Origin: an uncultured Candidatus Saccharibacteria bacterium
GTDB lineage: Bacteria > Patescibacteriota > Minisyncoccia > Phycocordibacterales > UBA9973
Length of the DNA: 55,453 nt
Reading direction: 5' to 3'
NCBI GenBank assembly: GCA_964599225.1
Contig: CAZRDO010000006.1
Coordinates: 1 to 55,453, forward strand
Position numbers and translations under genes: made by a program. Each line of letters starts with the position of its first letter. The first letter of the stretch is position 1. Shown here piece by piece: positions 16,214 to 54,506 of the stretch. Below the pieces are notes generated by a model. It saw only the letters and a program-made list of their open reading frames with translations, had not been told where the DNA came from and ran no database searches.

Positions 16214-16216
16214 ACG

Positions 16217-16232: not shown

Positions 16233-16245
16233 ATAGTAAATAGAA

Positions 16246-22264: not shown

Positions 22265-24019
22265 ATGCAAATTAAAAAAGATCAATTAAAAAAATTCATT
22301 ATTGAGTCAAGTCTTGTTGCGAAAAAAGATATTGATGAAGCGGAAGCGCTCGCGATCCAAAAAGGAACAGACATCGGAGACGAGTTAGTAGGGCTTGGTA
22401 AGCTCAAACATAGTGATCTCAAACGCATCCAAGCCTATGTAGTAGGTATTCCCTTCATCTCACTTATTGGTGAGAAAATTGATCCGAGCATTCTCTCGCT
22501 TATTCCAGAACCAATTGCCAGGAACTATAATATTATTGCGTATAAAAAACACGGCGATGAACTTGAGGCGGCCATGCTTGATTTTGATGATTTGCCACGA
22601 CTAGATTTTATTCGGAAAAAAGTTGGTTTAAAAATTCTTCCGCGCCTTACTGACACTGCTTCAATTAAAGTCGGACTCGCTCAATATAAACAGAGTCTCA
22701 AAGCTGATTTTGATGCGATTCTACAGAAAGAAACCGAGTCACTGAAAACTATCGCTGAGGCAGCAGGTGATGAACCTAAGACTGAAAAGGAATTGAAGGA
22801 AATGGCTGAGGATATTCCAGTCGTTAAGATTGTTGATACGCTTATATCTCACGCAATTTTACAAAACGCTTCCGATATTCACATTGAACCACAAGAAGAA
22901 TCACTCGTTGTGCGCTATCGCATTGACGGCATCCTTCATGACGCGATGATTCTGCCCAAAGAAACGTCAGCTGGAATTATTGCCCGCATCAAAGTCCTCT
23001 CAAATCTCAAACTCGATGAGAAGCGTCTGCCGCAAGATGGTCGCTTCAAAATCAACAATGAAGAACAGCGTGTTTCATTTCGTGTTTCGACACTGCCGAC
23101 CTACTATGGTGAGAAAACTGTGATTAGAATTCTTAGAGAAAATGCCAAGGGTTATTCTCTTGAGGGTCTTGGATTCCATGGCGATGGTCTTGAGCGTATT
23201 CATGATTCACTCAAATTAAAAACTGGCATGATTCTCGCAACAGGTCCAACTGGTTCTGGTAAAACGACGACGCTCTACACTGTGCTTGATATTTTAAATA
23301 CACCAGACGTAAATATTTCGACTGTTGAAGATCCAATTGAATATCAGATGCCACGAATCAATCAAACACAAGTGAAATCTGAGATTGGACTGACATTTGC
23401 TAATGGTCTTCGTACACTTTTGCGTCAAGACCCTGACATCATCATGGTTGGTGAGATTCGAGACGAGGAAACTGTTGACCTAGCTATTAATGCCTCTCTC
23501 ACTGGACACCTTGTGCTCTCAACGATCCATACTAATTCTGCGGCTGGAGCAATTCCACGCATGATGGATATGGGTGCAGAAGCATTTCTCATTATTTCAA
23601 CAATTAGAACTATTATTGCGCAACGTCTCGTGCGCAAACTCTGTCATGCACGAGAACAATATACGATGGAAGAAGCAGAATTTAATGCACTCGCAAAAAT
23701 TGCTGATATGGATCATGTGCTCGATGCACTGAAGGCAGAAAAAATAGTTGAGAAAAATGCGACGTGGAAAACCATACCGTTTTATAAACCAATACCAGGA
23801 GAGGATTGCGAAGATGGATATAGTGGGCGAATTGGTATTCACGAAGTACTCACAGTTTCAAGCACCATCAAGGAACTCATCCTGAAAGGCTCAAGTGAAG
23901 ATGTGATTGCAGCCCAAGCACGAAAAGAAGGAATGCTTACGATGGTCGAAGATGGTATTTTCCAGGCCGCACAAGGACTTACAACAACAGCTGAAGTTCT
24001 GAGAGTTGTTTCAGAATAG
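22265..24019 (+). CDS. pilB: Type IV pilus assembly ATPase (GspE/PilB family)
   Basis: N-terminal GSPII_E_N-like domain, Walker A GPTGSGKTTT, Asp box, Walker B IIMVGEIRD and His box LVLSTIHTN. Confidence 0.9.
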   Translation: MQIKKDQLKKFIIESSLVAKKDIDEAEALAIQKGTDIGDELVGLGKLKHSDLKRIQAYVVGIPFISLIGEKIDPSILSLIPEPIARNYNIIAYKKHGDELEAAMLDFDDLPRLDFIRKKVGLKILPRLTDTASIKVGLAQYKQSLKADFDAILQKETESLKTIAEAAGDEPKTEKELKEMAEDIPVVKIVDTLISHAILQNASDIHIEPQEESLVVRYRIDGILHDAMILPKETSAGIIARIKVLSNLKLDEKRLPQDGRFKINNEEQRVSFRVSTLPTYYGEKTVIRILRENAKGYSLEGLGFHGDGLERIHDSLKLKTGMILATGPTGSGKTTTLYTVLDILNTPDVNISTVEDPIEYQMPRINQTQVKSEIGLTFANGLRTLLRQDPDIIMVGEIRDEETVDLAINASLTGHLVLSTIHTNSAAGAIPRMMDMGAEAFLIISTIRTIIAQRLVRKLCHAREQYTMEEAEFNALAKIADMDHVLDALKAEKIVEKNATWKTIPFYKPIPGEDCEDGYSGRIGIHEVLTVSSTIKELILKGSSEDVIAAQARKEGMLTMVEDGIFQAAQGLTTTAEVLRVVSE

Positions 24020-24047: not shown

Positions 24048-25268
24048 ATGCAATTTACATACACTGCTACAAATAAGGTTGGCGAGAAGACAAAAGGAGC
24101 TATTGAGGCGTCGGATCGATTTGATGCAGCACATCAATTGCGTGCACAAGGATTGGTGCCGAGTACACTTACCGAACATCGTACAAAAAATAAAGAAGTA
24201 AACATACCACTACTGTCTCCGCTCCTCAACCACATTGGACTTCAAGAGAAAATTGTTTTTACCAGAAACCTTGCCGGCATGCTGACTGCTGGTCTCCCGC
24301 TCTCTCGAGCGCTCGGCGTACTGGAAAGGCAAACCCGTAATGTAATTTTCAAAAAAGTACTCAAGTCAATCGAAGATTCAATCAACAGTGGCGGTACGCT
24401 TTCGGACGGACTTTCGCTTCATAAAGAACATTTCTCCACATTATTTGTATCTATGGTCCGCGCTGGTGAAGAGTCGGGGACGCTCGCGAAGTCACTTTTA
24501 GAAGTGGGGCGGAATATTGAGAAAATTTATTCACTTCGCAGAAAAGTGAAAGGCGCGATGACGTACCCACTGATTATCGTCTTTGCAATTTTTTTGGTTG
24601 GAACTTTAATGCTGATCTTTGTGGTGCCAACGTTGACCGAGACCTTTGTTGGACTCGGCGTGAAACTTCCAAAGACCACACAATTTATTATTTTTATTAG
24701 TGATCTCGTTTCCAAACATACTCTTGTATTTTTTGGTACAGTCTTCGCACTGGTCATAGGGGTAGTGGCCGTGTCTCGTATCAAGGCGACTAAGAAATAT
24801 GTTGATACATTTATGCTTCATATTCCCGTCATTAAAAATATTGTGAAGGAGTTAAATACGGCGCGCACTGCACGGACAGTTGCTTCACTTCTCGCATCCG
24901 GCGTTGATATTACTCGAGCGCTTGAAATTACTAGAGATGTTCTTCAGAATGATCGGTACAAGAGTGTTATAGATGAAACCATTATTGCTGTACAAAAAGG
25001 TGTGCCCATCTCGACAGTCATCGAACGCTATCCCAATCTCTACGCACCAATGATGACTGAGATGGTGGAAGTGGGAGAAGAGACAGGGCAACTGGCGAGT
25101 ATTTTAACCAATGTTGCAGAATTTTATGAGGAAGAAGTCGATAATAAAACAAAAAGTCTCTCAACCATTATTGAACCGGTGTTGATGATTTTTGTTGGAG
25201 CCGCAGTCGGATTTTTTGCAGTTTCGATGATTACACCACTTTATTCGATTCTCAATACTATTGATTAA
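24048..25268 (+). CDS. pilC: Type IV pilus platform protein (GspF/PilC family)
   Basis: Two GspF repeats (FTRNLAGMLTAGLPLSRAL; TARTVASLLASGVDITRAL) and three TM segments. Confidence 0.9.
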   Translation: MQFTYTATNKVGEKTKGAIEASDRFDAAHQLRAQGLVPSTLTEHRTKNKEVNIPLLSPLLNHIGLQEKIVFTRNLAGMLTAGLPLSRALGVLERQTRNVIFKKVLKSIEDSINSGGTLSDGLSLHKEHFSTLFVSMVRAGEESGTLAKSLLEVGRNIEKIYSLRRKVKGAMTYPLIIVFAIFLVGTLMLIFVVPTLTETFVGLGVKLPKTTQFIIFISDLVSKHTLVFFGTVFALVIGVVAVSRIKATKKYVDTFMLHIPVIKNIVKELNTARTARTVASLLASGVDITRALEITRDVLQNDRYKSVIDETIIAVQKGVPISTVIERYPNLYAPMMTEMVEVGEETGQLASILTNVAEFYEEEVDNKTKSLSTIIEPVLMIFVGAAVGFFAVSMITPLYSILNTID

Positions 25269-25269
25269 C

Positions 25270-25728
25270 ATGAAAAAGACCGCAGGACTCTCTCTTATAG
25301 AACTGGTGATTACGGTCGCGCTCATTGGAGCACTGTCTGCAATTGTTGCAGTTTCATTTCACCAATTCCAACGTCAGCAAATTCAAAAGTCGACTGTCGA
25401 TACCATTATCTCAATGCTTGATAGTGCTCGAGCCAATACACTCTCTGCTCGGAATCTCTCACAGTTTGGTGTGCATTTCTCTTCCTCTGCCGTCGTATCA
25501 TTTGAAGGAGGAAGTTATGTGAGTGGTGCAGCTGGAAATGCTACCTATACACTTGATACTCGTGCAACACTCGGATCAATTTCACTCAATGGTGGAGGTA
25601 CAGATGTTATTTTTTCTCGCCTTACAGGGGACACTAACAATTATGGTACACTCAATGTCATAGTTACTGGTCTTTCTCCAAATAAAACTCTTACCATCAG
25701 TGGGACAGGAATTGTAAGTAGTAATTAA
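25270..25728 (+). CDS. Prepilin-type protein, GspH/FimT-like minor pilin
   Basis: MKKTAG|LSLIELVITVALIGALSAIV is a class III signal with Glu5. DSARANTLSAR follows the GspH-like pattern. Confidence 0.75.
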   Translation: MKKTAGLSLIELVITVALIGALSAIVAVSFHQFQRQQIQKSTVDTIISMLDSARANTLSARNLSQFGVHFSSSAVVSFEGGSYVSGAAGNATYTLDTRATLGSISLNGGGTDVIFSRLTGDTNNYGTLNVIVTGLSPNKTLTISGTGIVSSN

Positions 25729-25733
25729 CAAAT

Positions 25734-26249
25734 ATGTCTTCTCGATCTTTTACAGCATCATTTCAAAATACGAGAAAGTCCTTGTTGGCCAAGGGAACTT
25801 TTTTGATTGAAGTCGTTATTGTGGTTTCCATTATCACACTGATGCTTCTTGCTACGATGCAAATTACTGCACTCTCAACACGTATTAGTCGTCGCGCACT
25901 TGCCGAAACACAGGTTGCGTTTCTTGCCGAAGAGGGCGCCGATGTCGTGCGTCTCGTCCGTGATGCTGGTTGGGGCGCATTTACAGCGCTTTCAACTTCA
26001 ACCCCGTACTATCTCGTCCACGGGACGGGTGGGTGGACGTTGACGACCAGTCCTACAATAATCGATTCAGTATTTACTCGCACAGTGGTCTTTGAGACAG
26101 TAAATCGTGATAGTAATGATGATATTGTGACCAGTGGAGGTACGATCGATAGTGGTACACGAAAAATTACAATTACTATTTCTTGGAATGATGGAGCAGA
26201 GACGGTGACAAAAACATTAGCATTCTATTTAACTGATATCATAAGTTAG
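25734..26249 (+). CDS. Prepilin-type minor pilin with a long leader
   Basis: ...LLAKG|TFLIEVVIVVSIITLMLL is a cleavage/methylation-type N-terminus. Confidence 0.65.
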   Translation: MSSRSFTASFQNTRKSLLAKGTFLIEVVIVVSIITLMLLATMQITALSTRISRRALAETQVAFLAEEGADVVRLVRDAGWGAFTALSTSTPYYLVHGTGGWTLTTSPTIIDSVFTRTVVFETVNRDSNDDIVTSGGTIDSGTRKITITISWNDGAETVTKTLAFYLTDIIS

Positions 26250-26252
26250 CGT

Positions 26253-26768
26253 ATGAAACGAACTCAAGGCGGTTACGCACTCTTGGAAATGCTCGTCTAT
26301 ATTGTAGTGCTTTCACTTGTCGCGAATGTGACGGTGAATGCACTTATTATTATGACTCGCTCATTTAATGAGAGTCGAGCAAACCGAGACCTCGCTTCTA
26401 GTGGCACTTCAGCAATGGAGCGTCTAGGACGAGAAATCAGATCAGGAGTGAGTATCGATGGGGCTGGCAGCACATTTATTACATCTCCAGGCGTACTTAA
26501 ACTCAATACACTGGATGAAAATAATATCGCGCACACTATTACCTTCACGGTTTCCGGTTCGCCAGCCCAACTTATGCTTACTCGTGACGGCACATCTGTG
26601 GGAGCGCTGACAACAGTGCATGTGGCAGTCCAGAGCTTTATTGTGAGACAGATGGCTGTGGGAACTGAGAGTGCAGTGAAAGTTGAACTGACACTTCAGG
26701 CGGTGCGTGCCAAAGGAGGCAAGAGTGCAAATTTTTATAACACAGTAATATTACGAGGAACATATTAA
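26253..26768 (+). CDS. Prepilin-type minor pilin
   Basis: MKRTQGG|YALLEMLVYIVVLSLV. Confidence 0.65.
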   Translation: MKRTQGGYALLEMLVYIVVLSLVANVTVNALIIMTRSFNESRANRDLASSGTSAMERLGREIRSGVSIDGAGSTFITSPGVLKLNTLDENNIAHTITFTVSGSPAQLMLTRDGTSVGALTTVHVAVQSFIVRQMAVGTESAVKVELTLQAVRAKGGKSANFYNTVILRGTY

Positions 26769-32984: not shown

Positions 32985-34706
32985 ATGAAAATCACATTTT
33001 TTGGGGGCCTCCTGGCAACATTAGTACTCACATTAGTTTGTATTAGTCCAAATATTGCTTCGGCAGATGATGAAAGTCTTCTTCCTTGTACCATTACCTC
33101 ATTTAAAGCGGTGCCGGCTTCAATTACTTCTGGTGCATCCTCATCTCTCAAATGGGTTACACAGAACTGTATAACCAATTTGATAACTCAAGATTCTAAT
33201 CCTGTGATCTCATCAGCGCTTCCCTCCGGCTCAGTTTCTACCGGACTTCTTACTTCTACCAAAACCTATCTCCTCACCGCAGTTGGTGACACAAATAGTG
33301 CAACTGCGTATGCTACCGTCACTGTGGGCACAATCCCAGCATGTAGCATTACTACCTTTACTGCGAACCCTTCATCAATTCAATACAATACTACGTCTAC
33401 ACTTTCATGGACCACAAATAATTGTACATCTGTGTCTATTTCACCGACTATTGGTACTGTTCCGGTTAATGGTTCTGTGTCTACAGGCAATCTTACGCAA
33501 ACTACTATTTTCACACTCAATGCCGTTAGCGGTAGTAATGCTGCTATAGCGAGTAAGACTATTACGGTTATCCCGGCGCCACAGTGCACGATCACATTAT
33601 TTAATGCCACTCCACAAAATATCATTGCTGGGCAATCTACACTGCTTAATTGGAAGACGACGAATTGTAATACCGGATCAATCAATCAAGGCATCGGGTC
33701 AATCACATCAACTATTACTCAGGGTTCAGTATCAACTGGAGTACTTATGAGTACGAAAACATATAAATTGACCGCCGAAGGTATTGCCAATACTGCATCA
33801 GCGCAAACAACAGTCTCGGTTGCGCTTTCATGTGTACCAAATAGCTGGACTCAGAAAGCAGATTTCGGTGGCACAGCGCGTTATGATGCAATAACTTTTG
33901 TTATCAGTAGTAAGGGGTACCTAGGAACAGGTTCTGAAGGTTACAATGAATACCAGAAAGACTTCTGGGAATATGATCCAGTTACAAACACCTGGACGCA
34001 GAAGGCAGATTTTGCAGGCCTTGCGCGAGACAGTGCTGTAAGTTTTACTATCAATAATAAAGCATACGTAGGCACAGGAAATGGATTAAATGGAGTCTCC
34101 TACAAAGATTTCTGGGAATACAATCCTACCTCAAACACCTGGACTCAGAAAGCAGATTTCGGTGGCACAGCGCGTAGTGGTGCAGTGGGTTTCTCGATAA
34201 ACAATAAAGGATATGTAGGAACAGGAACTGGTGGTGCAGGTCAAAAAGATTTCTGGGAATACAATCCTACCTCAAACACCTGGACTCAGAAAGCAGATTT
34301 CGGTGGCACAGGAAGATACGAAGCGATTGGGTTTGCTATCGGCAGTAAGGGGTATCTAGGAACAGGATTTGGTGGTGGATTTAAAAAAGATTTCTGGGAA
34401 TACAATCCAACTTCAAACATCTGGACCCAGAAAGCCGACTTTGGGGGCACAGCACGCTATCATCCCGTTGCATTTACTTTAAATTCCAAAGGATACGTAG
34501 GAACTGGTCATGATGTGACCACTCCATACTTAAAAGACTTCTGGGAATACAATCCATCCACAAATGCCTGGACTCAAAAGGCAGATTTTGGGGGAACAGG
34601 ACGACACTTTGCAAAAGGTTTTGCAGTGAATGGAAAAGGATATATTGGAATTGGAGAAGATTCTAACTGGATCAATACTAAAGACTTCTGGGAATACTGC
34701 CCGTAA
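32985..34706 (+). CDS. Secreted protein: three Ig-like domains plus a six-blade Kelch-like beta-propeller
   Basis: Three copies of C-x-I-T-x-F-x-A-x-P...L-x-W-x-T-x-N-C. Six copies of WTQKADFGGTxR...KGY(L/V)GTG...KDFWEY(N/D)P. Confidence 0.75.
   Translation: MKITFFGGLLATLVLTLVCISPNIASADDESLLPCTITSFKAVPASITSGASSSLKWVTQNCITNLITQDSNPVISSALPSGSVSTGLLTSTKTYLLTAVGDTNSATAYATVTVGTIPACSITTFTANPSSIQYNTTSTLSWTTNNCTSVSISPTIGTVPVNGSVSTGNLTQTTIFTLNAVSGSNAAIASKTITVIPAPQCTITLFNATPQNIIAGQSTLLNWKTTNCNTGSINQGIGSITSTITQGSVSTGVLMSTKTYKLTAEGIANTASAQTTVSVALSCVPNSWTQKADFGGTARYDAITFVISSKGYLGTGSEGYNEYQKDFWEYDPVTNTWTQKADFAGLARDSAVSFTINNKAYVGTGNGLNGVSYKDFWEYNPTSNTWTQKADFGGTARSGAVGFSINNKGYVGTGTGGAGQKDFWEYNPTSNTWTQKADFGGTGRYEAIGFAIGSKGYLGTGFGGGFKKDFWEYNPTSNIWTQKADFGGTARYHPVAFTLNSKGYVGTGHDVTTPYLKDFWEYNPSTNAWTQKADFGGTGRHFAKGFAVNGKGYIGIGEDSNWINTKDFWEYCP
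34104..34320 (+). repeat. Near-identical 141-bp tandem duplication inside the Kelch-like gene
   Basis: aaagatttctgggaatacaatcctacctcaaacacctggactcagaaagcagatttcggtggcacag occurs at 34104 and again at 34245. Confidence 0.85.
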
Positions 34707-43170: not shown

Positions 43171-43785
43171 ATGGATATTCTCGATTCAATTATATACGTC
43201 GCCATACTCATTTTCTCAGTCGCATTACATGAAATTGCTCATGGCTATGCGGCGTTGCACGAAGGTGACGATACTGCCCTTCGGGCAGGCAGATTGACAC
43301 TCAATCCGGTTGCACATCTAGATATTTTTGGTTCAATTATTTTACCCTTTCTCCTCATAGTTTCTCATACTGGATTTGTGTTTGGCTGGGCCAAGCCGGT
43401 GCCGTATAACGAAGCGCGATTACGAAATCGTCGCAGTAGCACACTCCTCGTTGCAGGAGCAGGTATAATTGCAAACTTAATTATTGTGCTCATATTTTCG
43501 ATTTTTATACGCATGAGCATGGCGTTCGGTATTGGAGTCTCGCTTCTGCCAGTATTTAGCAGCATAGTACTACTGAACATTGTGTTGGCAGTGTTTAACC
43601 TCGTACCCCTACCGCCACTCGATGGATCTAAAATTCTTTTTGCACTTTTGCCAGAACGTTTCAGAAGCTTTGAGTTTACGCTGTTGCGTTACAGTTTCGT
43701 ATTTGTTGTTATTTTTATATTTTTCCTTTGGAAATTCATTGCACCAGTCGTCAGTATTCTATTCAATCTTTTTGTCGGTTCATAA
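43171..43785 (+). CDS. Site-2 protease (M50) family membrane metalloprotease
   Basis: HEIAHG zinc motif, LNPVAHLDIFGS, NLVPLPPLDG and multiple TM segments. Confidence 0.8.
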   Translation: MDILDSIIYVAILIFSVALHEIAHGYAALHEGDDTALRAGRLTLNPVAHLDIFGSIILPFLLIVSHTGFVFGWAKPVPYNEARLRNRRSSTLLVAGAGIIANLIIVLIFSIFIRMSMAFGIGVSLLPVFSSIVLLNIVLAVFNLVPLPPLDGSKILFALLPERFRSFEFTLLRYSFVFVVIFIFFLWKFIAPVVSILFNLFVGS

Positions 43786-45713
43786 TGCGTACATTTTTTT
43801 TGATTATTAGCATATTCTCACTTTTCTATTTGTCGGGATATAGTGCCTTTGCCTCTCCAACAAACGGAACTATAGATGCAACCAACAATACTGCTATCTT
43901 TCTTCAAGATAGCAGTATCATTTATTTTCTGACACCGCTTTCCAGTGGTTCGACGATCCATATTACTGACAGCGGTGTGACGGGGAGTGCCTGGAGTGAA
44001 GAAATGGGTTGGATTCATTTTAATCCCACAAATTATGGTGGTGTTACTATGACGACACTGGGCAGTGGAGTGCTCACGGGTTCTGCATGGGGAGAAAATT
44101 TAGGTTGGGTGTCATTTAATTGTGACACGGGAACTAACTGTGCAAGTAATGATAATTATAAAGTTACTATTGGTTCAGATGGGAAATGGTCTGGATATGC
44201 ATGGGCTACTAACTATGGCTGGATTCGGTTTGATTGTGGGAATTCTGGAGAATGTGTCCAAACGGACTGGCGGCCAGCATCTGTGCGTGCTGAATGCTCT
44301 GATCTTGTTGATAATGACGGAGATGGGGCAACTGATTACCCAGATGATACAGGGTGCACGGATGAAGAGGATACCCAGGAGGCAATAATAAAAATTATTG
44401 GATCTGGTGGTGGCGAGGAGAATCCATCACTCTGTACTGATCCAAGCGCTCTCAACACAGGCGGCACACTACCGTGCCAGTATGGGACATACCTATGTTT
44501 CGATGCCGGTGCACTGAATTTTGGCGGGTCACTGCCGTGTCAGTATCCAGAAAACAAAAGTGATCTTTGTGAAGACCATACCGCGGACAATTATGGTGGC
44601 GCACTACCTTGTCAGTTTGCGTCCTGCTCTGGCGATGAGTGTACGCCCTCAGTTGAATGTGTAGGCGAAGACTGTATTATCAATCCTCCGGCGAATCCTA
44701 GTGAATCTGGAAGTTCAAGCTCGCAACCCTTAATTACTCCACAAAGTATGGGTAATATATTGAGTGGCTTTTTTACAAACACTACCGCTACAGCAGCACT
44801 TCTTACTAGTGGACTCCTCTCCCTTCTTGCTCCTTTGTTTCTCAACCCACTTTCTCTCAGTGAGCTTATACTTCTACCGACGCGCTTGTGGTCACTTCTC
44901 ATGACTGCATTTGGACTTAAAAAACGCCGTCCGCCATGGGGCGTGGTCTATGACTCTGTGACCAAACAACCACTTGACCCTGCCTATGTAATACTCAACG
45001 ACAGCGCTGGCAAAGAAGTTGCAACTGCAATTACTGATTTCGATGGTAGATATGGATTTTTTTCCATGACTGGTACTTTTACCATTGTTGCGAATAAAAC
45101 TAACTATGAGTTTCCTTCAAAAAGATTAGCATCCCGTACCCATGATGAGCTCTATCAGAATTTGTATTTTGGAGAATCAATTAGTATTGATAAAGAAAGC
45201 GCATTACTTGTGCGCAATATCCCACTTGACCCTCTTTCGTTTGATTGGAATGAATTTACCAAGCGGAATCAAAAATTGACGAAATTCTATTCGAGAAGCA
45301 ATCGTATTATGCAACGCCTCGCAGACATACTTTTTGTTGCAGGGTTTGTTATATCACTCGTTGCTACCGTGACGACGCCTGTACTGTACAACATTGGAAT
45401 TTTCTGTCTGTATATTTTACTTGCGATTGCCAAAGGACTACGTGTGAGTCCGTATTCACTTGCTCGAGTCATTGAAAGAGAGACAGGTTACCCGCTCTCA
45501 TTTAGTATTGTCAGAATTTATTCAGCAGGTATGCACCAGGAAATTGCCCATAAAGTAACCAATACCATTGGCCAATTCTATGCACTTGTCCCAAATGGCT
45601 CCTATTACCTGACAATAGAGAGAAAAAATCAAGATTTAAGTTATACACTCGTTCACACATCTCAAGTATTTCCTATTACACATGGATATATCAATAAAAC
45701 ATTTAGAGTATAA
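43785..45713 (+). CDS. Module A1: surface/membrane protein with GW repeats, a Cys-bracketed DNDGDG motif, LPCQ Cys repeats, hydrophobic segments and CarboxypepD_reg-like domains
   Basis: Signal MRTFFLIISIFSLFYLSGYSAFA. TGSAWSEEMGWIHFNP, TGSAWGENLGWVSFNC, SGYAWATNYGWIRFDC. CSDLVDNDGDGATDYPDDTGC. WGVVYDSVTKQPLDPAYV...DFDGRYGF. The ATG overlaps the M50 stop (TAATG). Confidence 0.7.
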   Translation: MRTFFLIISIFSLFYLSGYSAFASPTNGTIDATNNTAIFLQDSSIIYFLTPLSSGSTIHITDSGVTGSAWSEEMGWIHFNPTNYGGVTMTTLGSGVLTGSAWGENLGWVSFNCDTGTNCASNDNYKVTIGSDGKWSGYAWATNYGWIRFDCGNSGECVQTDWRPASVRAECSDLVDNDGDGATDYPDDTGCTDEEDTQEAIIKIIGSGGGEENPSLCTDPSALNTGGTLPCQYGTYLCFDAGALNFGGSLPCQYPENKSDLCEDHTADNYGGALPCQFASCSGDECTPSVECVGEDCIINPPANPSESGSSSSQPLITPQSMGNILSGFFTNTTATAALLTSGLLSLLAPLFLNPLSLSELILLPTRLWSLLMTAFGLKKRRPPWGVVYDSVTKQPLDPAYVILNDSAGKEVATAITDFDGRYGFFSMTGTFTIVANKTNYEFPSKRLASRTHDELYQNLYFGESISIDKESALLVRNIPLDPLSFDWNEFTKRNQKLTKFYSRSNRIMQRLADILFVAGFVISLVATVTTPVLYNIGIFCLYILLAIAKGLRVSPYSLARVIERETGYPLSFSIVRIYSAGMHQEIAHKVTNTIGQFYALVPNGSYYLTIERKNQDLSYTLVHTSQVFPITHGYINKTFRV

Positions 45714-45754
45714 TAGAAAGTATTATCTTAACTGATGAAAAAACGCGCATAGTT

Positions 45755-47992
45755 TTGTTTGCCAGTTTCCTTTTTAAAAGGAATAGGCTTTTAGTAATTG
45801 CGCTCCTTTTTCTCTTCACATGTTCTGTTTCGATCCGATTTGCAGTGAGTTATTTTGAACCTGGCACCACTCCCGATCCATCTTGTTCGCCAACGGATCC
45901 TACCTGTACTGTTTTGATATTTCCAGATCAAAGTTCACATGATGGTGAATTTCTATCTACAGACGGTACTACTGTCTCATGGGCAAGCGTAGGCGCCGCT
46001 CTAACTGGAAGCGGTACTACATCTCGAGTGCCATATTGGACTAGTGCTACAAACCTTGGAGATGAAGCTGGGTTTGAGTATGACGCCACGACAAATATTT
46101 TTAAATCTTCAATTATAAGTGGAACAACTGAATTTAGAGTTGGAACAGGTTTTTTTGGAACACAAGATACAAACTTGTTAAATGTTCGATTGGGTTCAGG
46201 TTCTGGTAGTGCCATTACTTCGGGTACTAATAATCTTCTTCTTGGTATCAATGCAGGTACCGCACTTAGCACAAGCTCATATAACACAATCATTGGAGTG
46301 AATGCAGGGACTTCTCTTACTACGGGCGGAGGGTCAAATGTCTTTATCGGGGAAGAAGCCGGCCATGATCAAACTACAGGATATGAAAATGTATTTATTG
46401 GACAAGGGGCAGGCAGTAATGTACTTTCAGGTCAACGAAGTATTGCGATTGGTACTTCTGCAGCGATTAATAGTACTTCGGCAGATAGGTTTACTGCGAT
46501 AGGTTTTGGTGCACTTGGATCACAAGTAGGTGCAGCAGATAATGTCGGCATCGGCTATGCTGCTGGTACGCTCGCCACAGGGTCAAGTAATGTGTTTATT
46601 GGAAGTGGAGCGGGATATAGTACTACTTCTGCGCAATCTAATGTTTTTTTAGGGTACTCAGCAGTAATGACTGATATTACTGATTCAAATAATTTTGTTG
46701 GTGGTAGTTCTTATGCACCTATCTACGATGTCTTCATTGGCCAAGGAGATTTTAATGCTAGTGCATCAGCAGTCACCTACCATGGGACAGGCGGACTAGG
46801 TAGTGATAAAGTCGGTGGAGATTTTGTCGTAGCTGCAGGACAGGCCACAGGAAATGCACTTGGTGGGTCAATTTTATTTAAAACTTCTAATAGTGGAGTT
46901 TCTGGATCAACACTTCAGTCACTCACAACAAAAATGGCACTTACACCAGAAGGGAATTTCGGTATCGGAACTACTGCTCCAGAAGCGCAGCTTCAAATTG
47001 GCGATACTAATCCATCAGATGTAGTTGATTGGAATATCTATCTATATAATCCTTCCTTTCCACGCATTGGAATTGATGCAGGGAATAATAATAGTGCAGT
47101 TGAATTTTTAGATTCTGGAGTTAGGAAATGGGCGATCGGGAGTGATGACGGGACATTTGTCATTTTCGATACCCCATTTGATGGGCCAAGATTTTCAATT
47201 ACTAATACAGGAAATGTCAGTGTGGGAACAGGAGTTGCAGACTACCTTCTCGATGTAGATAAAACAAATGTCGATACAAATATTTTTGCACTACATGATT
47301 CTGACGGTGAATGTCTTCATAATCCTGAATCAGGCTCAGAGACAGTCACATGCTCTTCGGATGAACGACTCAAGACCAATATTACTGATGCAAATACGAT
47401 GTTGCCCTACTTTAAAGATCTCAGAATTAGGCAGTATGATGTCATTGCAGGAGGAGATCATCTTACGGGTGTGATTGCTCAAGAGGTCCAAGTATTTCAT
47501 CCAGAACTTGTGACTGAGGGTCCAAACGGATATTTGAGTGTGGCCGCACCAAATACTTGGCAGTTGATTAAAGCACTTCAAGAGCTTGATTTAAAAATCG
47601 AGCCACTATCTTCACTTGATCTTGAAGTTTCTGGCTCGTTCGCATCACTTATCAAGACCTACCTTGAGAATGCAGCCAATGGAGTAGAAACATTTTTTGC
47701 TCACAAAATTCAAACACATGAGCTGTGTCTTGATGATGTCTGTGTGACCAAGGATGATCTCCAGAAACTTATTGATGAAAAAAACAATATCCAAGAACAA
47801 CAGGACAATGACGAAGAAGATCCCGAGCTTATAGAAGATAGTGGCGATGATACTTCAATCGATCCACCGAAGGAGTATATTGATGACCCGGAAAAGCCCC
47901 CAGAGATTCCTGAGCCAATTATCGATGAAAAAAGTATTGAAGATCCAGATCTTACACCTGAAAATAACGTGATTGATTTGAATCCATTGTGA
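45755..47992 (+). CDS. Module B1: N-terminally anchored tail-fibre-like protein with a C-terminal endosialidase-type intramolecular chaperone (Peptidase_S74-like) domain and an acidic tail
   Basis: TM LLVIALLFLFTCSVSI. Repeats NVFIGxxAG / IAIGxxA. CSSDERLKTNI...GVIAQEV...LIKALQELDLKIE. TTG start at 45755 inferred by alignment to B2. Confidence 0.65.
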   Translation: MFASFLFKRNRLLVIALLFLFTCSVSIRFAVSYFEPGTTPDPSCSPTDPTCTVLIFPDQSSHDGEFLSTDGTTVSWASVGAALTGSGTTSRVPYWTSATNLGDEAGFEYDATTNIFKSSIISGTTEFRVGTGFFGTQDTNLLNVRLGSGSGSAITSGTNNLLLGINAGTALSTSSYNTIIGVNAGTSLTTGGGSNVFIGEEAGHDQTTGYENVFIGQGAGSNVLSGQRSIAIGTSAAINSTSADRFTAIGFGALGSQVGAADNVGIGYAAGTLATGSSNVFIGSGAGYSTTSAQSNVFLGYSAVMTDITDSNNFVGGSSYAPIYDVFIGQGDFNASASAVTYHGTGGLGSDKVGGDFVVAAGQATGNALGGSILFKTSNSGVSGSTLQSLTTKMALTPEGNFGIGTTAPEAQLQIGDTNPSDVVDWNIYLYNPSFPRIGIDAGNNNSAVEFLDSGVRKWAIGSDDGTFVIFDTPFDGPRFSITNTGNVSVGTGVADYLLDVDKTNVDTNIFALHDSDGECLHNPESGSETVTCSSDERLKTNITDANTMLPYFKDLRIRQYDVIAGGDHLTGVIAQEVQVFHPELVTEGPNGYLSVAAPNTWQLIKALQELDLKIEPLSSLDLEVSGSFASLIKTYLENAANGVETFFAHKIQTHELCLDDVCVTKDDLQKLIDEKNNIQEQQDNDEEDPELIEDSGDDTSIDPPKEYIDDPEKPPEIPEPIIDEKSIEDPDLTPENNVIDLNPL

Positions 47993-48066
47993 TATATGTA
48001 CGTATGTGTTGAGAGTTGTATAATTGCGTGATTTTTAAAAAAGAAATTCTAGAGTAGAATGTATAG

Positions 48067-50184
48067 ATGTATGTTCGCAAGTTTTTTGCATTAGTTCTTA
48101 TGCTCTTTAGCATACTTATTTTACCGGGAAATCTTCTTGCAGTGACAGGTACAATCAATCCGGATAATGATGATTCATACTTTGCAGAAATACTTCGAGA
48201 TGAAAGCCAAATCAATTTTGGTTATTTCACACAACCAGGAATTGATGCCTACAATATAACTATTTCTGATACCGAGCTTACAGGATACGCTTGGGCCAGT
48301 AGTTATGGGTGGATTAGTTTGAACTGTAGTAATGGAAACAACTCGTGTGCAACTGCTGACTTTAAAGTAGCAAATAACCTCATTGATACTCCGAGTACAA
48401 CAGTAAATACACTCTCTCAGCTCTCTGGCTATGCATGGGGCGAAAGGATTGGATGGATAAATTTTGGACCATTTGATAATGAAGATGCTGAAAATGAGCG
48501 AGTAATTATTACGAATGGTGAATTCTCTGGCTATGCATGGGGTCAGAATGTTGGCTGGATAAAATTTGGTTGTGACGATGCAGATTCTTGTGTAAGGACT
48601 GATTGGGGGACGCAATGTAATGATGGAGTCGATAATGATAGTGATGGTACTATCGATTATCCAGCAGATATAAGTTGTGATAGTACAAGTGGAAATTCTG
48701 AAGCTGGCATCGAGTGTGATGACCAAATTGATAACGATGGTGATGGTCTAGTTGATTTCCCAGATGATATAGGCTGCGCCTCATTGCTTAGTACCAGTGA
48801 AGATCCTCAGTGTGATGATGATATTGATAACGATAATGATGGATTGATTGATTACCCGCTTGATCCAACTTGTAGTTTTGCATCAAGTACTACAGAAGGA
48901 ATTGATGATCGAGACCCTGTTGAGAGTAATAATCCTGTTAGCAGTGACGGAATTCCCGGCGTTCATCCAGCTAATCCGATTGACATTGGTGATGATATCC
49001 CAGTCGATGAGGAGGACCCTGTTGATGAAGAAAATCCCGATGACGTAATCCCTGACAGTACACCAGTTGATACAAATGAAGATGAGAATAATGACAGTGG
49101 AGGACCAGAGATTCCTGATGACTCTAACGAAATAGTAGAAGATGACAAAGGGCTAGGTATTTCACTTGATTTTTTACCAGATGGCTTTCAAAATGCTGCA
49201 GATAAAATAATTGGTGGCGTAAGTGATAGCCTCTCTACAAGTCTAGGCCGGAGTATTTCGACACTCGTTACTAGTGCAGGTGCAGCTATTGGTGTGGCAG
49301 TGATTGCCCCAACGCTTATTACGGTGTTCAATATTTCAGAGGTAGCACTCATTCCATTTCGTATCGGGTCACTGGTGCTTTCAGCGTTTGGGGTCCGTCG
49401 TCGTTCATGGGGCGTTGTCTATGACTCTGTGACCAAACAACCACTTGATCCTGTGTATGTGTCACTTCTTGATGTTAGTAATAATGAAATAACAAATGCG
49501 ATTACTGATCTTGATGGTCGGTATGGATTTATTGTAAAGAAGGGAACATACAAACTTACTGCCAATAAAGCTAATTACACCTTTCCCTCAGTAAAACTCT
49601 ACGGTGCGACTGAAGATGAATTTTATAAAGATCTCTACTTGAGTGGAGAAATTGTTATTGAAAATGATGGAGATGTGATTAATCGCAATATTCCCATGGA
49701 TCCAGTCGGAAAAGATTGGAATGAAACTGCCAAGCGTGAGCGTAAGGTTATGCGTTTCTACTCAGCACGTCGTCTCTTCATGCACCGTGCATCAAGAATA
49801 TGCTTCTACATAGGGTTCCTACTTTCAGTGTGCGCTGTCTTCATTATTGAGAAGCCATATACATTTGCTATTGTAGGATTCTATGTACTCATGTTCCTGC
49901 TCCGTCGAGTAGGTATAAAGGAAAAGGTTAAGGGCGTAATCTTCGAGAAAGGCACGGGGTACGGTATTCCATTTGCTGTCGTGAGAGTTTTTTCTGAAAG
50001 AACCAATACACAAATCAAAAACTGTGTCGCTGATGTGAATGGTAAATACCTCTGTCTTGTCAGTAATGGCAGATACTATATAAAGATTGAAAAGAAAAAT
50101 CAGGATGGAAGTTATACCCCGGTGTATACTTCTACACCAATGGATGTCAAAAAAGGAGTCATTAATCGTTCATTTGAGTTATAA
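48067..50184 (+). CDS. Module A2: paralog of A1 with three DNDxDG motifs and an acidic Pro-rich central region
   Basis: TGYAWASSYGWISLNC, SGYAWGERIGWINFGP, SGYAWGQNVGWIKFGC. CNDGVDNDSDGTIDYPADISC, CDDQIDNDGDGLVDFPDDIGC, CDDDIDNDNDGLIDYPLDPTC. WGVVYDSVTKQPLDPVYV...DLDGRYGF. Confidence 0.7.
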   Translation: MYVRKFFALVLMLFSILILPGNLLAVTGTINPDNDDSYFAEILRDESQINFGYFTQPGIDAYNITISDTELTGYAWASSYGWISLNCSNGNNSCATADFKVANNLIDTPSTTVNTLSQLSGYAWGERIGWINFGPFDNEDAENERVIITNGEFSGYAWGQNVGWIKFGCDDADSCVRTDWGTQCNDGVDNDSDGTIDYPADISCDSTSGNSEAGIECDDQIDNDGDGLVDFPDDIGCASLLSTSEDPQCDDDIDNDNDGLIDYPLDPTCSFASSTTEGIDDRDPVESNNPVSSDGIPGVHPANPIDIGDDIPVDEEDPVDEENPDDVIPDSTPVDTNEDENNDSGGPEIPDDSNEIVEDDKGLGISLDFLPDGFQNAADKIIGGVSDSLSTSLGRSISTLVTSAGAAIGVAVIAPTLITVFNISEVALIPFRIGSLVLSAFGVRRRSWGVVYDSVTKQPLDPVYVSLLDVSNNEITNAITDLDGRYGFIVKKGTYKLTANKANYTFPSVKLYGATEDEFYKDLYLSGEIVIENDGDVINRNIPMDPVGKDWNETAKRERKVMRFYSARRLFMHRASRICFYIGFLLSVCAVFIIEKPYTFAIVGFYVLMFLLRRVGIKEKVKGVIFEKGTGYGIPFAVVRVFSERTNTQIKNCVADVNGKYLCLVSNGRYYIKIEKKNQDGSYTPVYTSTPMDVKKGVINRSFEL

Positions 50185-50198
50185 TAAACTTGTGGATT

Positions 50199-52658
50199 AT
50201 GTCTCAATGGTTTCTTAAAAAAAATCGTGTTCTTGTTCTTGCACTGACTTTCCTTGTTTTTTTCTCATGGACGGTTTCTTTTGTCTTTGCTGATCCACCT
50301 ACGTCTCCGTATACTGCACCTGCAACACTTCAGCCAGACTGTGCTCCAGGGAGTAGTGTAAATTGTACGGTTGCAGATAACCTTGGCATAGGCTCAACTA
50401 TTACATCGGCGACAGCTGGTTCAATACTCTTTGCAGGTACTAGTGGCGTGCTCGCTCAAGATAATACTAATTTCTTATGGGATGATGCTAATAACCAGCT
50501 TCGTCTCGGGGCAGGTACCGCATCGTTGCCTGCCTATACGTTTGCAGGGGATACAACTACAGGGCTTTTTAGTGTTTCTGCCGGAACAATTGGGTTTACA
50601 TTTAGTGGTACCCAGCGTTATTCAATAAGCGGCTCATCATTTGCCTCAGGAACAACTGGCGGTTTTTCAATCGGACGTGCAATCGGCTCGGCAACTGCAC
50701 CAACGTATACATTTACAGGTGATGGTAATACTGGTATCTATCGTGATGCTGCCGACACACTTGAATTTGCAACTGCAGGAAGTGAAAGAGCTCGCTTTGA
50801 TTCGTCTGGTAACTTTGGTATTGGTGAGACAACACCCGCAAGTCTCTTGACGGTAGGCTCAGGTGATCTGTTTCAGGTTAATTCCTCTGGTGCCATTGCT
50901 GCAGCGACTGGTATTACGTCTTCAGGTACAATCAATTTCTCTGGACTCACCGCATCAAAACTTGTTTTCACCGACGGATCAAAAAATCTCTCTTCAACAG
51001 GGACGGTTCCTATCGATCAGGGTGGTACCGGACTGACGAGTACGCCAACAAATGGTCAGCTTTTTATTGGTAATGGTTCAGGTTACACACTGGCGACCAT
51101 TACTGCTGGTACTGGAGTATCGGTGACGAGTGGATCTGGTTCAATTACCATCGCCGCTACAGGTTCGGCGAGTAATGAATTTTCTGATAATGTTTTTCGA
51201 ATTATTGATAACGGAGATGCTTCAAAGGCAATTGCCTTTGAAGCATCTGGTATTACGACTGCAACGACTAGGACATTTACCGTACCAGATGCCAGTGGCA
51301 CGCTTGCGCTCACTACTACTCCGGGAACATCAGGGACTGATGTGAACTGGTCAGCGGCTGGAACACTTAATATTCCTGACGCTTCAGCAACAAACCGTGG
51401 TGTGGTCAATACAACTACACAAACATTTATTGGTGACAAAACATTTAATAATACTGTAGTTGTAAACAGAAACTCTTCATCAGCACTTGCGGTTGGTACT
51501 ACCAACTTTGCGTTTCGTACAACGAATGCGGGTTCGAATGTGACCTCACAGACTATATTTGATGTTGATAATGCTGCCGCAACTGCCGGAGCTCAAGGGT
51601 TTGCTTTTGAGACTGCAAATGGTTTCGTGCTGACAAGTGCCAATGGGACTCGTCGTATTGCGCGTGCCGCACTTAAGCTCACAAATTTAGGGAACACTGC
51701 AGGAAGTGAAACGGGTGATCTTTCATTTTATACAAAAGCCTCTGGTGCAGCTATTGCCGAACGATTTAGAATTGACTCAGCAGGAAAACTTTTTGTCACC
51801 TCTGGACTTGCTGCCTCAACAGGCACTCCTGATGCACTGTGTATGAATACTTCAACTTTTGAAATTACTCACAATACTGGTACCGCAACTTGTACAGTTT
51901 CCTCTGCACGATTCAAGCACGATATTGAGACCTATGAAGATAGTGGGCTCGATATTGTGAATGCACTTCGTCCAGTGACCTACGTTTATAATGACACTGA
52001 AAATCCTCGCATTGGATTTATCGCTGAAGATGTTGAAGAGGTTGATACGAGATTAATGTTCTATGAAGCTGATGGAGTGACGCCTCGCGGAGTCCGTTAT
52101 GAAGACATCGTACCAGTACTCACGAAAGCCGTACAGGAACTCGATCTGAAAATTGAACCACTTACCTCACTGGATTTAGAAGACGAACATTCTCTCGGCA
52201 GCCTTATCAAACAATTTCTCGCCGATGCAAGCAACAGCATCAGTGATCTCTTCGCTCATCGTATTCACACACAAACACTTTGTGTGGGTGAGTCAGGAAA
52301 TGAAACTTGTATTTCAAAGAGTGAATTGGATTCATTACTCGAGAGAAGAAATCATAGTAGTGGTGGGAGTGCACCAGATCCTATAATTGAAGATGAAAAT
52401 CCCACTCCACTTGAAGATCCGAACCCTACTCCAGAAGAAGAACCAAATCTAGGGGATGATACGGGTGAAGATGGAGAACCTGATTCTAATAATGAGGATG
52501 TCCCAGGTGATTTACCATCACCTGAGCCACCTATCGATGATGGCACTTCAGTAGCAGATGATGATGGTACAGATGAGGTACCGGATACAACGGATGAAGG
52601 AGGCAATAGAGGTGAAAGTCTCATTGGAGAAGGCGTAAGTCCTGAAATCCTTCCATAA
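50199..52658 (+). CDS. Module B2: paralog of B1, a tail-fibre-like protein with an S74-like chaperone domain and an acidic tail
   Basis: TM VLVLALTFLVFFSWTVSFVFA. Fibre repeats (PAYTFAGDTTTGLF, PTYTFTGDGNTGIY, GNFGIGETTPASLLTV). VSSARFKHDI...GFIAEDV...LTKAVQELDLKIE. Confidence 0.7.
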   Translation: MSQWFLKKNRVLVLALTFLVFFSWTVSFVFADPPTSPYTAPATLQPDCAPGSSVNCTVADNLGIGSTITSATAGSILFAGTSGVLAQDNTNFLWDDANNQLRLGAGTASLPAYTFAGDTTTGLFSVSAGTIGFTFSGTQRYSISGSSFASGTTGGFSIGRAIGSATAPTYTFTGDGNTGIYRDAADTLEFATAGSERARFDSSGNFGIGETTPASLLTVGSGDLFQVNSSGAIAAATGITSSGTINFSGLTASKLVFTDGSKNLSSTGTVPIDQGGTGLTSTPTNGQLFIGNGSGYTLATITAGTGVSVTSGSGSITIAATGSASNEFSDNVFRIIDNGDASKAIAFEASGITTATTRTFTVPDASGTLALTTTPGTSGTDVNWSAAGTLNIPDASATNRGVVNTTTQTFIGDKTFNNTVVVNRNSSSALAVGTTNFAFRTTNAGSNVTSQTIFDVDNAAATAGAQGFAFETANGFVLTSANGTRRIARAALKLTNLGNTAGSETGDLSFYTKASGAAIAERFRIDSAGKLFVTSGLAASTGTPDALCMNTSTFEITHNTGTATCTVSSARFKHDIETYEDSGLDIVNALRPVTYVYNDTENPRIGFIAEDVEEVDTRLMFYEADGVTPRGVRYEDIVPVLTKAVQELDLKIEPLTSLDLEDEHSLGSLIKQFLADASNSISDLFAHRIHTQTLCVGESGNETCISKSELDSLLERRNHSSGGSAPDPIIEDENPTPLEDPNPTPEEEPNLGDDTGEDGEPDSNNEDVPGDLPSPEPPIDDGTSVADDDGTDEVPDTTDEGGNRGESLIGEGVSPEILP

Positions 52659-52724: not shown

Positions 52725-53141
52725 ATGGCACGAATTTCACAACTTATTCGAAAACCTCGCCGACGCATCGTGAAGCGCTCAAAGGCTGTTGCCCTTGCGG
52801 TTGGTTTCAACGTGCTTAAGAATCGGCCAGTCTACTACAACTCACCATTTAAGCGTGGTGTCTGTACCAAAGTTTCAACAACAACACCTAAGAAGCCTAA
52901 CTCAGCTCTCCGAAAGATTGCTCGTGTACGTCTTACGAACGGTAGAGAGGTCACGGCATACATTCCAGGCGAAGGACACAATCTTCAAGAGCACTCAGTG
53001 GTCATTATCCGCGGTGGTCGTGTGAAAGACCTTGTTGGTGTTCGTTACCATATTGTCCGTGGCCGACTTGATGCACAGGGTGTTGAGAAGCGTCGCCAAA
53101 GTCGCTCACTCTACGGTAACAAGCGTCCAAAAGCTAAATAA
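52725..53141 (+). CDS. rpsL: 30S ribosomal protein S12, with an internal insertion relative to typical bacterial S12
   Basis: [62 protein letters not shown]. Extra segment [18 protein letters not shown] lies before KRGVC. Confidence 0.95.
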
Positions 53142-53173
53142 TCTTAATTTAAAATTTTTAATTCATACATTAA

Positions 53174-53644
53174 ATGCGTCGTCCAGTCAAAAATCGAAAT
53201 ATTGCAGGTCCAGATCTCCGTTTCAACTCTGAGCGTCTTGGTAAGTTCATAAACTCAGTTATGTGGAGTGGTAAGAAAGAAACTGCACGTACAATTGTCT
53301 ACCGCGCGCTTGATATCATCAAAGAACAAATGGGTGTTGAGAATCCAATTGAAGTGTTTGATACAGCTCTCAGGAATGCTGCACCAAACATGGAAGTCCG
53401 CTCACGCCGAATCGGTGGTGCAAACTATCAAGTTCCTCGTGAAGTCAGACCAGAACGTCGCCAAGCCCTCGCGTTTCGTTGGATTATCGGTGCAGCTCGT
53501 TCCGGGAAAGGTAAGCCTATGGCAGATCGTCTCGCAGCAGAACTTATTGCTGCTTCAAAGAATGAAGGTGTCGCAATCAAGAAGCGCGATGATACACATC
53601 GCATGGCCGAAGCAAATAAGGCGTTCGCACACTTTGCTTGGTAG
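53174..53644 (+). CDS. rpsG: 30S ribosomal protein S7
   Basis: ...[38 protein letters not shown]... Confidence 0.95.
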
Positions 53645-53747: not shown

Positions 53748-54506
53748 ATGAAAAGTAACTTTCCAAGTAGCGAGAAACTTTGCTACTATATTTATCTCGA
53801 TTGGATAAATAATAAACCAGTATTTATTCTAAAAGTTGAGTCTCACATTGCGGAATATTTCATCAATGAACTTTTGCAAATTACAACCGCGGAACTCAAT
53901 GGGCTCACAGACTATAAGTTTAATGAGAAAGAACTTAAGCGTGTAGCAAAGCTTGATGGAGAGTTTGGTTGGCTGAGTGGAATTCGGTGGAGTGGGAAAA
54001 ATTTTGAGACCCATGAATTTACAATCCATGTCTCAAGACATGATCCGAAACGAACATTAGTGAATTTGTCACTGATGTTCACATTACTAAATCGTGCTGA
54101 AAATGTATCTCAGGCAGATTATCTTCAGCCGCTTTGGATCAATATGAAAACAAGTGGAGATCTACTGATTAGTGGCTTTGTACTTCCACACACGGGCAGT
54201 CAATTCGTTGAGTGGCATAAGTCTGAAAATCGTCAGCTCATAGAAAAGGTACAGGATTTCGCACAGTATCTGTGCGAATCTCATGCTGAAACCGATCATA
54301 TTAAGGTAAATTACCAGAATTTTGAAATCGGAGGGATTGGTTACCATGCTGCACTCGTGCCATCAGAAAATATTGAGTTAGGTAAGGGATTTACATTCAA
54401 TTCAAAAAATGTCGATCGCCCTGACCAGGCACTCATTTTGTTGGTCTGTTTAATGGAAATGACGCAATTTGAATATTTGCCAAGGAGATTTGAAGTAATT
54501 TATTAG
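53748..54506 (+). CDS. Hypothetical protein inserted between rpsG and fusA
   Basis: 252-aa ORF bounded by terminators on both sides. No signal peptide and no family recognised. Confidence 0.6.
   Translation: MKSNFPSSEKLCYYIYLDWINNKPVFILKVESHIAEYFINELLQITTAELNGLTDYKFNEKELKRVAKLDGEFGWLSGIRWSGKNFETHEFTIHVSRHDPKRTLVNLSLMFTLLNRAENVSQADYLQPLWINMKTSGDLLISGFVLPHTGSQFVEWHKSENRQLIEKVQDFAQYLCESHAETDHIKVNYQNFEIGGIGYHAALVPSENIELGKGFTFNSKNVDRPDQALILLVCLMEMTQFEYLPRRFEVIY

Follow-up and report, generated by a model that had tools for sequence, protein, structure and literature searches.

Fibres that carry a C-terminal S74 intramolecular chaperone are the closest described counterparts of the system considered here. 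They are found as fibres and spikes of phages (K1F endosialidase, T5 pb1 and phi29 gp12) and, encoded by a bacterium, as the mosaic adhesive trimer (MAT) fibres of Bdellovibrio bacteriovorus, an S74 subgroup (Caulton et al., 2024; PMC10769870). According to the passages searched in that paper, all MAT proteins have a beta-rich domain, ~130 amino acids (aa) long and conserved, directly after the signal peptide, and S74 fibres elsewhere fold with their own chaperone alone. This report concerns a 55,453 nt stretch of DNA, termed the window, from an uncultured Candidatus Saccharibacteria bacterium (contig CAZRDO010000006.1, assembly GCA_964599225.1). It contains four genes in the order A1, B1, A2, B2, all on the + strand, where A encodes a membrane protein with an ectodomain of GW repeats and B a tail-fibre-like S74 protein. 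The proposal is that the secreted S74 fibre B docks on the envelope-anchored GW domain of A, the two forming a surface module specific to Patescibacteria; the chances that this is correct are judged to be about even.

To our knowledge, the means by which ultrasmall Patescibacteria outside Saccharibacteria find and hold their hosts are essentially unknown, with type IV pili the sole well-supported device. The locus points to a second attachment system, derived from phage fibres, of the kind shown for prey recognition by Bdellovibrio. In addition, it offers a candidate for the anchoring partner, a large family of extracellular domains that lack annotation, and concrete cognate pairs, A1-B1 and A2-B2. 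Literature searches on Patescibacteria or the candidate phyla radiation with S74, endosialidase, tail fibre or carboxypeptidase-regulatory, or on the GW domain, gave no relevant paper, and fibres are not mentioned in the 2023 transposon-sequencing paper in Cell.

Comparison with described systems

The B proteins share several properties with MAT fibres. They are encoded by a cell, have a putative signal peptide and a long tail-fibre-like shaft with GN(V/F)GIGTTxP-type repeats, and end in an S74 chaperone/protease with a Ser-x4-Lys pair. Both kinds of fibre are also present as several diversified copies per genome, and each of the two organisms lives on other bacteria. The differences are at the two ends of the protein. 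B lacks the ~130 aa beta-rich domain and has instead a short Cys-loop of the PGETLDPxCxPGxxNC type, and the B1 N-terminus fails to align with that of the Bdellovibrio protein; after the chaperone, B has an extra Cys-pair block and an acidic tail. A dedicated neighbouring GW partner gene is not mentioned for MAT in the passages searched (PMC10769870). Because the ~130 aa N-terminal domain is missing, B is described here as working like a MAT fibre and not as a member of that family.

The present host, a patescibacterium, is expected to lack an outer membrane, and this sets it apart from Bdellovibrio. With phage fibres and spikes, B shares the S74 domain, the catalytic dyad and the fibre shaft, as well as the mosaic build that is classic for receptor-binding proteins, in which the N-terminal attachment end is conserved and the distal parts vary. 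It differs in having no virion, baseplate or nearby phage genes, in its putative Sec signal peptide and in its proposed attachment site, an envelope protein of the cell with a fold that no viral structure matches. For A, the fold of both C-terminal domains is that of transthyretin-like, CarboxypepD_reg and CnaB domains, as found in SdrD B domains, pilins and carboxypeptidase D. Unlike those proteins, A has its sandwiches interleaved with transmembrane (TM) helices in a conserved polytopic module that carries varied ectodomains. No published description of such a module was found.

The B proteins

The alignment of B1 with B2 covers the C-terminal ~310 aa (30% identity, E 4e-24), the only part over which they are clearly related. 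Both exceed the gathering score of 22 for PF13884, Peptidase_S74 (31.8 bits for B1, 46.3 bits for B2), and both shafts match phage tail-fibre and tail-spike PHROGs, in B2 over aa 145-320. A preliminary description of this DNA, made from the sequence alone, had placed the B C-terminus in the endosialidase/tail-spike chaperone family, and these matches bear it out. The catalytic motif is S535-DERL-K540 in B1 and S568-SARF-K573 in B2, the latter with Ser in place of the Asp of SDxxxK and with the Ser and Lys kept. These two residues are invariant in a 14-sequence alignment and conserved in 39 relatives.

A profile of the B C-terminus retrieved from the PDB a tail fibre (8JOV, E 2.6e-16), 6F45, the T5 L-shaped tail fibre (LTF; 8HQZ), MYRF (7DC3) and phi29 gp12 (3GUD), the matches extending down to E 4.5e-6. 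Sequence searches of the PDB with B1 and B2 found little besides the Bdellovibrio MAT fibre Bd1334 (8OML, E 0.0017 with B1). The S74 domain and shaft repeats of B1 also match P0223, a tail-fibre-domain protein of Bdellovibrio (E 7e-11). The shaft capping-loop motif V-G-G/N-pi-x-x-P-x-x-x-L is present as GNFGIGTTAPEAQL in B1 and as GNFGIGETTPASLL in B2, and these align with the repeats of P0223 and Bd1334.

Each B protein has a single hydrophobic segment, which is N-terminal and ends in an AxA-type site (VFA/AYA); no further hydrophobic segment or recognisable anchor was seen. The motif SSDERLK is found in B1 and SSARFK in B2, ELDLKIEPL(S/T)SLDLE in both, and the acidic tails have 26-27 D+E within the last 75 residues. 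Signal-peptide cleavage, trimerisation and autocleavage of B are predicted. The region that follows the S74 domain in patescibacterial B proteins has the form NGI..F...T..LC..D..C(I/V)TK.QL..LL, with two invariant Cys, and leads into an acidic Pro-rich tail (47582-47989 and 52137-52655 in the window). No PDB entry matches this Cys-pair block, and the Bdellovibrio protein lacks it.

The A proteins and the GW-repeat ectodomain

A1 and A2 align over their full length (32% identity, E 3e-114), and both exceed the gathering score of 32.3 for PF13620, CarboxypepD_reg (37.2 bits for A1, 47.4 bits for A2), a domain that had been predicted for them. Each has three G[YFS]AWx4GW[IV]x[FL] repeats. The motif CxDx(V/I)DNDxDGxxD(Y/F)PxDxxC occurs once in A1 and three times in A2, and WGVVYDSVTKQPLDP and D(F/L)DGRYGF are common to both. 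Every motif and repeat that the preliminary description listed for A and B was located. Its suggestion of MopE-like metal-binding models for the Cys-bracketed motifs was less successful, as thresholds were not reached: PF11617 (MopE-like Cu-binding) gave no report at E <= 1 for the A proteins, and NF033662 (acidic double-disulfide repeat) scored 17.7 and 23.2 bits, below its cut-off of 41. The motifs thus resemble these two families at a sub-threshold level.

An AlphaFold2 model of A2 has a mean predicted local distance difference test (pLDDT) score of 75.9 and shows a confident beta-rich N-terminal domain (residues 28-180) that holds the three GW repeats. Modelled alone, this ectodomain reaches pLDDT 87 and a predicted template modelling (pTM) score of 0.83. 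Foldseek searches with the GW-domain model gave nothing significant in the PDB (best E about 1, TM score < 0.4) or among BFVD viral structures; the domain has no Pfam model, and tblastn against GenBank phage records gave no match. With full-length A, Foldseek matches are restricted to the sandwiches, which resemble generic transthyretin, CnaB and carboxypeptidase D domains, and a sequence search of the PDB with an A profile found little.

Relatives of A were found at 461 places in species-representative genomes. They are overwhelmingly from metagenome-assembled genomes of Patescibacteria labelled Paceibacteria, Nomurabacteria or Saccharibacteria, and across Patescibacteria the C-terminal membrane module bears many different ectodomains. 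A scan of 2.9 million viral contigs in IMG/VR with an A alignment gave no relatives, and A has no PHROG matches.

Association of B with the GW domain

Loci related to the window were collected with A as the seed (80 loci, labelled here by L numbers), and 77 distinct loci were used for adjacency counts. These contain 37 B genes, of which 34 are no more than two genes away from an A, compared with 12 expected by random placement inside the same loci (p about 6e-14). The recurrence of A-B adjacency in related genomes, on which the preliminary description had staked its reading, is therefore far above chance. Both gene orders occur, and eight A-B cases are in loci with unrelated flanks. A is conserved widely and in synteny; B is a neighbour that may or may not be present. 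A complementary scan was seeded with the B C-terminus, for which the first alignment was too diverse and a narrower one was used; a GW protein is within two genes of B in 15 of 60 patescibacterial loci, and the remaining B genes adjoin housekeeping genes such as gyrB, fusA and gap. Proteins of ~690 aa that recur downstream of B were considered as a second type of partner and rejected, as they are GyrB and EF-G.

The adjacency tracks the GW-repeat ectodomain and not the CarboxypepD_reg/membrane module of A. Of the 65 A genes with a GW domain, 30 have a B no more than two genes away; for the 10 with a different ectodomain, the number is zero (Fisher p = 0.005). At four loci (L125, L136, L149, L155), B is directly followed by a gene for a GW protein that has no A membrane module. 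Two of these proteins (L125, L136) have a single C-terminal TM segment and one (L149) has a peptidoglycan-binding-like domain; no C-terminal anchor was identified in that of L155.

The N-terminus of patescibacterial B proteins has a putative signal peptide with an AxA-type end, followed by a motif of the type PPxSxYxPGETLDPxCxPGxxNCxV. It is conserved with or without an adjacent A, and the S74 proteins of Bacteroidota and Bdellovibrio have a different N-terminus. At six loci where two tandem B genes share one A, the N-terminal motifs of the two B proteins are 78-100% identical and the C-termini 42-69%. In this window and in L001, the two loci where A is itself present twice, identity between the B N-termini is only 28-41%. 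Among 24 adjacent pairs, the distances between GW domains are correlated with those between B N-termini (r = 0.47). Controlling for the A C-terminal module leaves a partial correlation of 0.45 (permutation p about 0.0005, not corrected for phylogeny), and for that module itself no correlation with the B N-terminus remains (partial r = -0.12). The co-variation is suggestive, and the B N-terminus appears to behave like an attachment end.

The scan with the B C-terminus also found S74 fibre genes in Bdellovibrio, Peredibacter, Micavibrio and several Bacteroidota (L134, L150, L159, L162 and others). The first three are predators of bacteria. Bacteria with a life on other cells may be enriched in cell-encoded S74 fibres.

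Origin of the two gene pairs

The closest relative of the window is L169, with rpsL and rpsG 99% identical and RecJ 92% identical. Between M50 and rpsL, L169 has orthologues of A2 (74%) and B2 (75%) only. Compared with L169, the A1-B1 pair is located exactly between the M50 stop codon and a conserved 74-nt region upstream of A2. A1 has its best matches in the A genes of L011 (45%) and L013 (43%), versus 32% to A2. L011 and L013 are also among the best matches of B1, whose single best match, L021, is outside the top ten for A1. A2 and B2 both match L001 and L169 best; L001, a more distant relative, has the order A-A-B-B.

The arrangement had been described as a tandem duplication. Two diverged paralogous A-B pairs are indeed present. 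A recent duplication in place is rejected, since L169 has A2-B2 alone and A1-B1 is closer to pairs of other lineages (45%) than to A2-B2 (32%). The absence of A1-B1 from L169 and its resemblance to pairs of other lineages imply that the whole module was gained or lost as a unit. These comparisons indicate that A-B pairs are co-inherited and that the second pair is an old, separately evolving module.

A 32-nt run at 44946-44977 is exactly identical to 49417-49448, as had been noticed earlier. It encodes VYDSVTKQPLD in both A1 and A2 and is confined to these two sites of the window (0 expected in shuffles). The 80 homologous sites in other loci have 2-10 differences each and none is identical. 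Because A1 and A2 are just 32% identical overall and other loci never match the run, the identity hints at a very short gene-conversion tract.

Chromosomal context

The coordinates and order of the four genes were reproduced from the list of open reading frames (ORFs). The gaps are 41 nt (A1-B1), 74 nt (B1-A2) and 14 nt (A2-B2). Pfam and the ORF list agree with the flanks given earlier, an M50 protease and rpsL. The core order in the 80 A-seeded loci is superoxide dismutase (SOD), metallo-beta-lactamase (MBL), M50, A with or without B, rpsL, rpsG and fusA; rpsL is downstream of the A/B block in 35 of the 80. The rest of the window encodes RNase Y, trigger factor, NusA, triosephosphate isomerase, phosphoglycerate kinase, RecJ, RNase H, ComEC, SOD, L28 and a type IV pilus cluster. 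No capsid, terminase, portal, integrase or baseplate genes were found among the larger window ORFs scanned with Pfam. With housekeeping flanks and synteny across dozens of species, the non-phage context proposed for these genes holds, and the window is cellular Patescibacteria chromosome and not prophage. A promoter and terminator scan of 42.7-53.3 kb found nothing above shuffled sequence.

At three other loci, an S74 fibre gene is found in the str operon after rpsG (L092, L096, L109), and in L092 and L096, where the sequence extends that far, it precedes fusA. L092 and L109 have no A between M50 and rpsL; L096 has one there, two genes upstream of B. Highly expressed ribosomal operons and their immediate surroundings seem to have taken up fibre genes more than once. 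In the window, the gene directly after rpsG is a 252-aa ORF (53748-54506) with no Pfam or PHROG match, and L169 has a 250-aa ORF (15844-16596) in the equivalent place between rpsG and fusA.

Proposed mechanism and alternative explanations

In the proposed mechanism, B would be exported by its Sec signal peptide and would fold as a trimeric fibre under the C-terminal S74 chaperone. The chaperone would then cut itself off at the conserved Ser (B1 S535, B2 S568), shedding with it the lineage-specific Cys-pair block and the acidic tail. A would be held in the envelope by the polytopic module with its two transthyretin-like sandwiches, and would display the GW domain outside the cell. The GW domain would be the specific partner of the fibre and most likely the docking site for the B N-terminal Cys-loop peptide (PGETLDPxCxPGxxNC type), a role proposed because the fibre is otherwise without an anchor. 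Once docked, fibres would stand on the cell surface and leave their variable distal portions available for binding to a host or partner cell, and the two cognate pairs would give this genome two fibre specificities. Directly supported are the homologies, the cellular context, the GW-B association and its specificity, the co-inheritance of pairs and the co-variation; physical A-B docking and host attachment we infer.

A-B pairs are probably a swappable kit for attachment to host cells. A broader proposal is that GW domains form an undescribed class of receptors on the cell surface at which secreted fibres of phage origin dock, the equivalent in cells of the baseplate-fibre interface of phages, with interchangeable cognate pairs whose identity is set by the Cys-loop and which are swapped between lineages to change host range. 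This extension is tentative, and we lean somewhat against it. If the pairing is true, metagenomes could be mined for fibre tips and GW/N-terminus types as host-range markers, and gain or loss of the module between near-identical genomes would mark host switching.

Several points weigh against docking of B on A. The sampled loci are the 80 most similar per query and are biased to relatives. Roughly half of the GW-type A genes lack a neighbouring B, and ~75% of the B genes sampled are beside housekeeping genes with no GW protein nearby, so that docking, if it occurs, must often work in trans. The comparison of loci with one and two A genes comprises eight loci only, and Mantel-type tests are inflated by shared ancestry. 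The topology of A is ambiguous as well. The flanks of both sandwiches are strongly positive across 55 homologues (+3.6, +3.1, +2.0), which suggests a cytoplasmic location, whereas the transthyretin/CnaB-type fold is usually extracellular.

This raises the question of whether A and B are independent adhesins, merely co-located or co-regulated, with the GW domain bound to a host or cell-wall ligand and the fibre held in some other way. GW repeats are found in 4,792 cluster representatives at E <= 1e-3. They co-occur with TSP3, Big, PKD, cadherin and HYR domains, which marks GW as an extracellular module, and a domain found with adhesin-type domains in thousands of surface proteins could itself be an adhesin. 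Two of three short stand-alone GW proteins that were looked up have no nearby S74 gene, the GW protein elsewhere in the window is near type IV pilus genes and not a fibre gene, and the many A and B genes without an adjacent partner also fit independent functions. Left unexplained by this alternative are the way in which the GW domain specifically co-varies with the B N-terminus, the match between the number of A genes and B N-terminal types, and a mature fibre with no recognisable anchor. We consider it unlikely.

Another possibility is that A serves B as a helper or transducer, either as an assembly or export factor, as a sensor that relays fibre engagement to the sandwiches, or under control of the M50 protease. 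The polytopic membrane module is highly conserved, the positive sandwich flanks are compatible with a cytoplasmic location, and an M50 gene precedes the A/B block in 38 of the 80 loci, with its stop codon and the A1 start codon overlapping in the window (ATAATG). This explanation is nevertheless improbable, as B adjacency follows the GW domain even where the membrane module is absent or replaced, and the module has no residual co-variation with B. In addition, S74 fibres elsewhere need only their own chaperone, according to the passages searched (PMC10769870).

The gap between M50 and the str operon might also be an insertion hotspot for accessory surface genes, the adjacency having no functional meaning. 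Some B genes are located between rpsG and fusA with no A between M50 and rpsL (L092, L109) or with no A beside B (L096), others are beside different housekeeping genes, and A without B is common in the same slot. A hotspot does not account for A-B adjacency in the eight loci with unrelated flanks and with GW-only proteins, nor for the fact that B is never beside the 10 non-GW A genes and that pairs are co-inherited and co-vary, which makes this explanation very unlikely. A prophage or tailocin remnant with surviving tail-fibre genes, suggested by the homology of B shafts and C-termini to phage tail fibres, is rejected as barely credible given the cellular context with no other phage genes among the scanned ORFs, the same genes in the same slot in many species, the putative signal peptides and lineage-wide N-terminus of B, and the lack of any phage relatives found for A.

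Feature coordinates and other surface-related genes

Table 1. Positions of the A and B genes, their predicted domains and the neighbouring features in the window.
Feature	Position	Strand	Remarks
M50 (site-2 protease family) gene	43171-43785	+	Pfam PF02163; conserved upstream neighbour of A/B block
A1	43785-45713	+	ORF, 642 aa; ATG start, alternative TTG at 43728
A1 signal peptide	43785-43853	+	putative; layout transferred from A2 model via alignment
A1 GW-repeat ectodomain	43854-44318	+	layout from A2 model via alignment
A1 Cys-bracketed acidic motif (one)	44295-44357	+	
A1 hydrophobic/TM region	44772-44918	+	layout from A2 model via alignment
A1 transthyretin-like sandwich 1	44931-45230	+	layout from A2 model via alignment
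A1 TM hairpin	45297-45440	+	layout from A2 model via alignment
A1 sandwich 2	45462-45710	+	layout from A2 model via alignment
B1	45755-47992	+	ORF, 745 aa; TTG start
B1 signal peptide (putative) and Cys-loop N-terminus	45755-45913	+	
B1 shaft repeat GNFGIGTTAP	46952-46981	+	
B1 S74 domain	47357-47512	+	PF13884; catalytic motif 47357-47374
B1 ELDLKIEPL block	47582-47626	+	
B1 Cys-pair block	47723-47752	+	followed by acidic tail to end
74-nt region upstream of A2	47993-48066	+	aligns with M50-A2 intergenic region of closest relative L169
A2	48067-50184	+	ORF, 705 aa
A2 signal peptide	48067-48141	+	putative; AlphaFold2 model
A2 GW-repeat ectodomain	48142-48612	+	AlphaFold2 model
A2 three Cys-bracketed acidic motifs and acidic disordered linker	48613-49176	+	AlphaFold2 model
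A2 hydrophobic helices	49240-49392	+	AlphaFold2 model
A2 sandwich 1	49405-49704	+	AlphaFold2 model
A2 TM hairpin	49765-49911	+	AlphaFold2 model
A2 sandwich 2	49933-50181	+	AlphaFold2 model
B2	50199-52658	+	ORF, 819 aa; alternative TTG at 50190
B2 signal peptide (putative) and Cys-loop N-terminus	50199-50372	+	
B2 shaft repeat GNFGIGETTP	50808-50837	+	
B2 S74 domain	51900-52046	+	PF13884; catalytic motif 51900-51917
B2 ELDLKIEPL block	52137-52181	+	
B2 Cys-pair block	52278-52319	+	followed by acidic/Pro-rich tail
rpsL and rpsG	52725-53644	+	conserved downstream neighbours of A/B block; start of str operon

The window encodes a third GW-repeat protein (19403-20851, 482 aa), which has no A-type membrane module and is located two genes upstream of the type IV pilus cluster. 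This cluster consists of PilB (22265-24019), PilC (24048-25268) and three pilin-like genes (25261-26768), two of which match the N-methylation motif. S74 fibres may be just one of the kinds of surface filament that GW domains accompany.

A 439-aa protein encoded on the - strand at 17635-18954 matches Por_Secre_tail, the C-terminal sorting domain of type IX secretion (30 bits versus a gathering score of 27), a match that is unexpected outside Bacteroidota. A Kelch-repeat beta-propeller protein (32985-34706) and a protein with an MliC-type lysozyme-inhibitor domain (3130-4074) may be further surface or host-interaction factors.

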